DNA of 64,000 nucleotides from Escherichia coli (GCF_003018255.1 NZ_CP027440.1), one strand, 5' to 3'; shown: positions 33,837 through 34,325, counted from the first letter of the stretch. Program-made: numbers and translations. The notes: a model not told the origin generated them from the sequence alone.

Positions 33837-34325
33837 GCCTGATGCGATGCTGGCGCGTCTTATCAGGTCTACAGGCGGTGTCGGAACGGTAGGCCGGATA
33901 AGGCGTTCACGCCGCATCCGGCAATCGGCACACCATGCCTGATGCGATGCTGGCGCATCTTATCAGGCCTACAGTCGGTGTTGGAACGGTAGGCCGGATA
34001 AGGCGTTCACGCCGCATCCTGCAATCGGCACACCATGCCTGATGCGATGCTGGCGCGTCTTATCAGGCCTACAGTCGGTGTTGGAGCGGTGGGCCGGATA
34101 AGGCGTTTACGCCGCATCCGGCAATCGGTACACCATGCCTGATGCGATGCTGGCGCGTCTTATCAGGTCTACAGGCGGTGTCGGAACGGTAGGCCGGATA
34201 AGGCGTTCACGCCGCATCCGGCAATCGGCACACCATGCCTGATGCGATGCTGGCGCGTCTTATCAGGTCTACAGGCGGTGTCGGAACGGTAGGCCGGATA
34301 AGGCGTTCACGCCGCATCCGGCAAG
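33837..34325. repeat. Tandem array of five ~100-bp REP/BIME units
   Basis: Unit gcctgatgcgatgctggcgcgtcttatcagg...ggccggataaggcgttcacgccgcatccggca repeated at 33837, 33937, 34037, 34137 and 34237 with a few substitutions. Confidence 0.85.

Follow-up and report, generated by a model that had tools for sequence, protein, structure and literature searches.

What is the tandem repeat that separates the convergent genes ybcF and purK in this Escherichia coli chromosome, and what might it contribute to the expression of its neighbours? A preliminary description of the 64,000-nucleotide stretch of DNA analysed here (hereafter the window, numbered from its first nucleotide) had recognised five tandem units of about 100 bp at this position, each with two palindromic REP sequences, and had suggested that such arrays can serve as transcript stabilisers or terminators and are prone to recombination. 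Repetitive extragenic palindromes (REPs) are imperfect palindromes of 30-40 nt with a 5' GTAG, and a two-base mismatch in the stem is needed for their binding by TnpA_REP (PMC3333891). In the elements known as BIME-2, the copies at any one locus closely resemble one another, and their number differs between strains (PMC3333891; PMC1187871). We asked whether the ybcF-purK repeat belongs to this class, how it varies among E. coli genomes, and which of several functional readings best accommodates its structure and position.

Results

Tandem Repeats Finder reported a single array, at 33820-34324, with a period of 100 bp, 5.1 copies, 94% matches, 0% indels and a score of 903, its units lying in register. 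Read 5' to 3', each unit comprises a 36-nt Y REP, a 16-nt linker, an inverted 35-nt Z2 REP and a 13-nt linker, and so contains two imperfect palindromes of opposite orientation; the array as a whole holds ten REPs of alternating orientation, spaced exactly 100 bp apart. A pattern search placed the Y-type REPs on the minus strand at 33837-33872 (unit 1, with one mismatch to the pattern, its GTAG head on the minus strand appearing as a terminal CTAC on the plus strand), 33937-33972 (unit 2), 34037-34072 (unit 3), 34137-34172 (unit 4) and 34237-34272 (unit 5). The same search placed the Z2-type REPs on the plus strand at 33889-33923 (unit 1, GTAGGCCGGATAAGGCGTTCACGCCGCATCCGGCA, without mismatch), 33989-34023 (unit 2, with the tail variant CCTGCA), 34089-34123 (unit 3, with a head of GTGG rather than GTAG and a TTTA loop), 34189-34223 (unit 4) and 34289-34323 (unit 5). 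The GTAG tetranucleotide is present in nine of the ten REPs, the Z REP of unit 3 being the exception. Neither the Y-type nor the Z-type pattern found a match in 100 dinucleotide-preserving shuffles of the window. With a looser pattern, the REP-head motif occurred at ten sites in the 64-kb window, all of them within the ybcF-purK array, and no other canonical REP was found there.

The REPs are joined by two kinds of linker. The 16-nt head-to-head linkers, of the short (S) type, consist of AGGCGGTGTCGGAACG or a close variant and lie at 33873-33888, 33973-33988, 34073-34088, 34173-34188 (unit 4, identical to AGGCGGTGTCGGAACG) and 34273-34288; in purK-sense RNA this sequence is C-rich, with 8 C and 3 G. 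The 13-nt tail-to-tail linkers, represented by ATCGGCACACCAT, lie at 33924-33936, 34024-34036, 34124-34136 and 34224-34236 (unit 4, identical to ATCGGCACACCAT), and are mildly C-rich in ybcF-sense RNA (5 C, 2 G). At the ybcF-proximal edge, a further 17 nt (33820-33836, GGCAATTGGCACATCCA) are in register with the internal GGCAATCGGCACACCAT, and represent a degenerate Z-REP tail together with a remnant of the tail-to-tail linker; a clearer remnant, GCATCCGGCAATCGG, is kept at this edge in single-unit alleles. The preliminary description was accurate as to five units of two REPs each, and its phrase 'perfectly phased' is borne out by the invariant spacing and lack of indels. The span that it gave, 33837-34325, correctly takes in all ten REPs, from the Y of unit 1 to the Z of unit 5, and omits the 17-nt remnant. 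Units differ pairwise by 1-10 substitutions and form two subgroups (units 1, 4 and 5, and units 2 and 3); units 4 and 5 are a single base apart, indicative of recent duplication.

In keeping with the definition of a REP, the palindromes are imperfect (36 nt in Y, 35 nt in Z), carry GTAG heads and a stem mismatch, and are extragenic. When a query that included the array was searched, 5,425 of 5,426 E. coli genomes gave matches, in a median of at least 25 places each, and this genome-wide recurrence excludes non-membership in the E. coli REP family. Alternation of Y and Z2 REPs, the short 16-nt S linker, tandem conserved copies and polymorphic copy number together identify the array, almost certainly, as BIME-2, the class in which E. 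coli REPs are combined into composite elements. The Y and Z sequences are consistent with Y and Z2 as printed for E. coli (PMC2817692), the call of Z2 rather than Z1 being indirect, founded on matches to printed Z2 sequences and on the Z2 half of the Rfam naRNA4 model, as opposed to a z1/z2 consensus table. Set against the BIME-2 family as defined in the nomenclature of Gilson, Bachellier and Hofnung (PMC3333891; PMC1187871), the array shares the alternating Y and Z2 REPs, the short head-to-head linker, the tandem extragenic copies and the strain-variable length, and departs from it in nothing substantive, as the S and s linkers at ybcF-purK are a locus-specific variant of a sort itself described as typical of BIME-2. 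The element is thus of a classical, known kind, for which arrays, length polymorphism, gyrase binding and transcript-end effects are already in the literature; a search of that literature for REPs at ybcF/purK returned nothing relevant.

Two other kinds of repeat were compared. A CRISPR array, suggested only by the regular spacing, was rejected, because the stretches between REPs recur in every unit and are not unique spacers. REPINs, as described by Bertels and Rainey, usually occur as single, scattered elements and spread by being copied to new positions. The ybcF-purK REPs resemble REPINs, and RAYT-associated REP doublets generally, in that an inverted pair is able to fold as one long hairpin, and in possessing the GTAG head and the stem mismatch that TnpA_REP needs, but differ from REPINs in that their units are amplified in tandem at a single locus.

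Upstream of the array on the plus strand lies ybcF (32914-33807), a carbamate kinase gene and the last gene of fdrA-ylbE-ylbF-ybcF, recognised by NCBIfam NF006926 (E 4.5e-187) and so named by RefSeq in strain JNE23-011; its stop codon is TAG, at 33805-33807. On the other side, purK (34340-35407, minus strand; NCBIfam NF004678, E 2.4e-203, and RefSeq annotation) is the last gene of purEK and ends in TAA at 34342-34340. The genes are convergent, as had been proposed, and the array occupies the gap between them, with a spacer of 29 nt from the ybcF stop codon to the first Y hairpin and of 17 nt from the purK stop codon to the stem end of the Z2 REP of unit 5. RefSeq lists no repeat feature and no CDS in the ybcF-purK intergenic region of either MG1655 or JNE23-011; short ORFs overlapping the array were dismissed as genes. 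In K-12 RNA-seq data, ybcF is weakly expressed (baseMean ~73) and purK far more strongly (~1170), such that purEK exceeds ybcF some 16-fold. The window itself differs from K-12: its closest genome is that of strain JNE23-011, with 99.9% identity over 1 kb and 100% over the flanks, and the flanks were found at an identity of at least 99% in only 25 of 5,425 genomes.

Elsewhere in the window, a plus-strand match to the enterobacterial sRNA STnc480 was found at 11470-11536 (Rfam, 84.1 bits against a gathering score of 72), and a tRNA at 40825-40898 (plus strand) is annotated as tRNA-Arg in the near-identical JNE23-011. In that genome the tRNA is followed by a frameshifted integrase fragment and a tail-fibre-assembly fragment, and further on, to about 62000, by ompT, nfrAB, an ISAs1 pseudogene and an Rhs / type VI secretion Vgr cluster. 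The stretch from tRNA-Arg to about 62000 looks like a decayed prophage site with a strain-specific island.

Folding the 546-nt region as a whole yielded z-scores of -7.3 and -6.6 over the two strands, with pairing between units dominant. As a fold so dominated is uninformative on co-transcriptional structure, local RNA folds were used instead. In unit 4 (Y REP 34137-34172; Z REP 34189-34223), the predicted Y hairpin has a folding energy of -17.9 kcal/mol on the plus strand and -12.4 kcal/mol on the minus strand, and the predicted Z hairpin -20.9 and -21.3 kcal/mol, respectively. A Z-linker-Y pair is predicted to form one long hairpin at -45.3 kcal/mol, compared with -38.8 kcal/mol for two separate hairpins. 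An internal loop of AA opposite GC appears in the predicted folds of the Z REP and of the minus-strand Y REP; in the Y REP of opposite sense, the predicted fold absorbs this mismatch as a G-U pair and single-base bulges.

Two stem positions are polymorphic among the Y REPs of the window (33837-34272), namely a C/T position at the foot of the stem and a C-G, T-G or T-A pair in its upper part. Both are held in pairs through G-U only in plus-strand (ybcF-sense) RNA; on the minus strand they become A-C mismatches, which weaken the Y hairpin from the higher to the lower of the stabilities given above. A mutation bias from C to T could equally explain this restriction of pairing to the plus strand. 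When ten distinct Y-stem variants from ybcF-purK and REP325 were compared, all cells paired and changes were one-sided only (C-G, U-G, U-A), and the observed covariation score was not significant, being reached in 143 of 500 shuffles.

A search for intrinsic terminators (a G+C-rich hairpin followed by a U tract) found no terminator-like site on either strand between 33600 and 34600, which leaves both transcription units with no obvious 3'-end element other than the array. No promoter was detected in the array, the sole weak promoter-like site of the scan falling inside purK, and neither strand of the intergenic region matched the IHF consensus as WATCAANNNNTTR or WATCARNNNNTTR, a site that characterises the long (L) linker of BIME-1. 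The ratio of C to G is 1.15 in the purK-sense array and 1.27 in REP325 read in yjdM sense. In work from 2015, Liang, Rudd and Deutscher reportedly described REP-mediated control of translation where a REP hairpin lies within about 15 nt of the stop codon. The spacers at ybcF-purK, of 29 nt and 17 nt, both exceed that reported limit, the purK side being borderline.

Scanning with cmscan revealed four plus-strand matches to the Rfam family naRNA4 (RF02564; gathering score 59.5 bits), each coincident with one Z2-linker-Y pair: 33892-33969 (83.1 bits), 33992-34069 (75.4 bits), 34092-34169 (82.1 bits) and 34192-34269 (78.0 bits). The same model scored 95-111 bits at REP325, 87-93 bits at yghU-hybG, 69 bits at phnE-phnD and 73 bits at a ybcF-purK array of the second unit type described below (type B), and made no match at the gathering score in the ybcF-purK region of K-12. 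As the model fits any Z2-linker-Y pair, a match signifies a BIME-2 unit and not a naRNA4 gene. Its genericity is evident in K-12 MG1655, where the phnE-phnD match (positions 250-330 of the extracted region, plus strand) falls outside REP325. At yghU-hybG, another convergent pair (NZ_CP145099.1, positions 840-1015 of the extracted region), a BIME-2 element 88% identical to the linker region of the window's unit type contains two naRNA4 matches 99 bp apart.

The closest studied relative of the ybcF-purK array is REP325, a 12-hairpin array between yjdM and yjdN in K-12 which is the source of naRNA4 and gives rise to naRNA1-6 (PMC4550694). REP325 has a period of 100 bp and 5.8 copies in K-12, and the two arrays have in common this exact period, the order of Z2 REP, linker of about 12-13 nt, inverted Y REP and linker of about 16-17 nt, the matches to naRNA4, and a large number of hairpins (12 in REP325 and 10 at ybcF-purK). 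They differ in that the linker sequences are unrelated (AAATTCCCGCACCCTCC in REP325, AGGCGGTGTCGGAACG at ybcF-purK) and the Rfam scores of REP325 are higher (95-111 against 75-83 bits); further, REP325 lies between tandem genes of one operon, whereas the ybcF-purK array lies between convergent genes and is strain-specific in copy number, with only three REPs at that position in K-12.

To follow copy number across strains, a comparison that the preliminary description had recommended, complete E. coli genomes (n = 5,426) were searched with a query consisting of the flanks only (250 bp each), the span between them being taken as the intergenic length. Sixty rows, evenly stepped down the ranking of 5,425 genomes, yielded 59 intact loci and one disrupted locus, and representative sequences were read for each length class. 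Single-unit alleles (126-138 bp) were the most frequent (24 of 59, 41%), followed by the K-12 form, composed of Y, truncated Z, Y and Z (194-204 bp; 19 of 59, 32%), and by five units (532-533 bp; 8 of 59, 14%). Three units (332 bp) were present at three loci (5%), two units (232 bp) at two (3%) and four units (436 bp) at one (2%), and a REP-less form of 152 bp, with a GC-rich repeat resembling boxC, was present at two (3%). The REP-less form is exemplified by strain C4 (NZ_CP010121.1, positions 509-660 of the extracted region), in which unrelated sequence containing the boxC-like repeat CCCCTCGCCCCTGTGGGGAGAGGGTTAGGGTGAGGGGG lies between ybcF and purK.

Two unit types were distinguished. Type A, that of the window, was seen as two, three or five units. 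It is shared by strains AR_0058 and HCM-28C-2 and makes up the three-unit alleles of strains such as CRE287 and EcST1193 MDBZ1340; the five-unit allele was further found in an O25b:H4-ST131 strain. Type B, that of K-12 and O157, has a Y REP that is 1 nt longer and a Z REP that is 1 nt shorter, and is usually single. In strain E400634 (NZ_CM128600.1, positions 354-786 of the extracted region), however, type B is present as four near-identical units, three of them identical, with an exact 100-bp period. As each type has been amplified, tandem amplification must have occurred at ybcF-purK at least twice, independently. The 194-bp element of K-12 MG1655 shares with the window its locus, its REP types and the purK-proximal Z2 REP, but is of type B and consists of Y, truncated Z, Y and Z (three REPs and a stump), without a full tandem unit. 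With a 61-nt probe for type A, matches at a coverage of at least 80% were obtained in 1,224 of 5,426 genomes, in one to six places per genome, which agrees with the sample, where 22% of alleles are of type A; both of the two matches of at least 95% identity that were checked are located at ybcF-purK.

The disrupted locus belongs to strain SK0189 (NZ_AP046539.1, positions 1440-3010 of the extracted region), in which IS1397 lies directly beside purK. Both ends of the element fall in REP loops, the right inverted repeat in that of the purK-proximal Z REP and the left end in that of a Y REP located downstream of gsk; the whole segment from gsk to ybcF that would otherwise separate these two REPs, allantoin cluster included, is deleted. 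IS1397 is known to insert specifically into the REPs of BIMEs (PMC1525189). The suggestion that the array is recombination-prone is thus upheld, by alleles of zero, one, two, three, four and five units, by two independent amplifications, and by the IS1397 insertion with its deletion. Copy-number change has most likely proceeded through slipped or unequal recombination between near-identical 100-bp units. TnpA_REP (RAYT), which recombines and multiplies BIMEs in vitro (PMC3333891), may have contributed.

Discussion

The explanation that we favour overall, and regard as probable, is that a BIME-2 array in the shared 3' intergenic region of ybcF and purK constitutes both a transcript-end element and a gyrase site. 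Its specifically functional component, namely that the array bars exonucleases from both sides, attenuates transcription in part through Rho and, on the DNA, is bound by gyrase, is drawn from analogy with other loci, and we give it an even chance. Under this proposal, transcripts entering from either side would fold into a row of hairpins of roughly -12 to -21 kcal/mol each, which would shield the mRNA upstream by halting 3'-to-5' exonucleases. The length of the array, together with the C-rich, single-stranded linker that every unit offers on both strands, would attenuate read-through, in part via Rho, and this attenuation would keep the two convergent transcription units from colliding. Transcripts of purEK would meet a first Z hairpin of -21 kcal/mol 17 nt past the stop codon, then the C-rich 16-nt linker (8 C, 3 G), in a pattern repeated five times; those of ybcF would meet a Y hairpin 29 nt past the stop codon, then the mildly C-rich 13-nt linkers. 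On the DNA, the Y REPs may be preferred sites of gyrase cleavage and binding, in a position suited to the removal of positive supercoils between convergent genes.

The published behaviour of REP325 is the principal source of this analogy. REP325 stabilises the upstream yjdM mRNA, reduces read-through into yjdN approximately 8-10-fold and produces a ladder of transcripts with hairpin ends; only the full array is sensitive to bicyclomycin, and therefore dependent on Rho, whereas two to four hairpins are not (bioRxiv 10.64898/2026.03.23.713779). A role as stabiliser or terminator at ybcF-purK, as first suggested, would match this behaviour, and no intrinsic terminator is present there to serve instead. 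More broadly, REPs occur in about 30% of convergent intergenic regions, expression is higher for the gene pairs concerned, and predicted bidirectional terminators contain nearly 40% of convergent REPs (10.64898/2026.03.23.713779). Against a general role, the same study found that REP loci vary widely and that mRNA half-life is not generally altered by the presence of REPs (10.64898/2026.03.23.713779). A further counter-point arises from our survey, as the locus holds anything from none to ten REPs across E. coli; such tolerance argues against a strict need for the array, and indicates that its length is not essential.

Gyrase cleavage sites are over-represented in BIME-2, mainly at y REPs, in a manner independent of transcription, and the signal increases when transcription is blocked (PMC6379681). 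With five Y REPs between convergent genes, the array could accordingly matter mainly at the level of DNA, as a strong, transcription-independent gyrase site that buffers supercoils, with any effects on RNA being incidental. We consider this possible, but would not expect it to prevail: gyrase cleaves only a subset of BIME-2 elements (PMC6379681), alleles that have at most one Y REP are common, and gyrase binding is in any case compatible with a role in RNA, rather than an alternative to it.

It is also reasonable to suppose that selection does not act on the additional units, and that the array is a parasitic or hitch-hiking repeat, lengthened and shortened by slippage, unequal crossing-over or TnpA_REP without consequence for the cell; this, too, we rate as a minority prospect. 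The range of zero to five units between otherwise conserved flanks, the independent amplification of two unit types, the REP-less allele in about 3% of sampled genomes, and the near-identity of units within an allele, which bespeaks recent events, would all be expected of such a repeat, as would the capacity of TnpA_REP to recombine and multiply BIMEs in vitro (PMC3333891). Retention tells against it, however: at least one REP pair is kept at the same position in 57 of 59 sampled intact loci (~97%), and the five-unit allele is stable enough to be found in about 14% of the genomes sampled, an O25b:H4-ST131 strain among them. Moreover, REP325 has measurable local effects (10.64898/2026.03.23.713779).

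The Rfam matches raise the prospect that the array is instead a cluster of naRNA4-like sRNAs, RNAs of about 80 nt with two hairpins which, together with HU, would bridge cruciform DNA and condense the chromosome. Four plus-strand units exceed the gathering score of RF02564 (75-83 against 59.5 bits), the architecture matches that of REP325, the source of naRNA4, and deletion of REP325 was reported to decondense the nucleoid (PMC4550694). We nevertheless regard this as very improbable. The Rfam model is generic and scores REP325 itself much higher (95-111 bits), and a preprint from 2026, which shares Adhya as an author with the earlier report, found that deletion or overexpression of REP325 had no effect on nucleoid volume, and found neither a stable HU-DNA-RNA ternary complex nor HU-dependent REP-REP contacts (10.64898/2026.03.23.713779). 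In addition, the plus strand is the sense of ybcF, the weakly expressed neighbour in K-12, and many strains have one unit or none at ybcF-purK. Lastly, an assembly artefact or chance similarity, which has in its favour only the general difficulty of assembling tandem repeats, is already refuted by the five-unit structure of many independent complete genomes, by the absence of pattern matches in shuffled sequence and by the Tandem Repeats Finder score.

Returning to the proposed transcript-end function, an extension of it would make array length a lineage-specific dial for expression. On this account, the ten-hairpin allele of the window, of the O25b:H4-ST131 strain and of others would terminate transcription from both sides in a Rho-dependent manner and would strongly protect the 3' ends of the purEK and ybcF transcripts, whereas the two- or three-hairpin alleles of K-12 and O157 would do neither. 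We think such a dial unlikely, and raise it for what it would offer if true.

Conclusions

As a discovery, the array is of small value, as the five-unit allele is present in hundreds of sequenced E. coli genomes. The locus is nonetheless minisatellite-like, with zero to five units of 100 bp in two types, and as such may confuse short-read assembly and could be a typing marker. Should the length of the array indeed tune expression, then the natural alleles of zero, one, two, three, four and five units would constitute a ready allelic series in which to relate hairpin number to the strength of termination and stabilisation. With all of its members at a single convergent junction, such a series could provide a clean test of whether, as recently claimed, Rho is recruited by long REP arrays only, and would thereby bring a mildly new angle to a well-known family of repeats.
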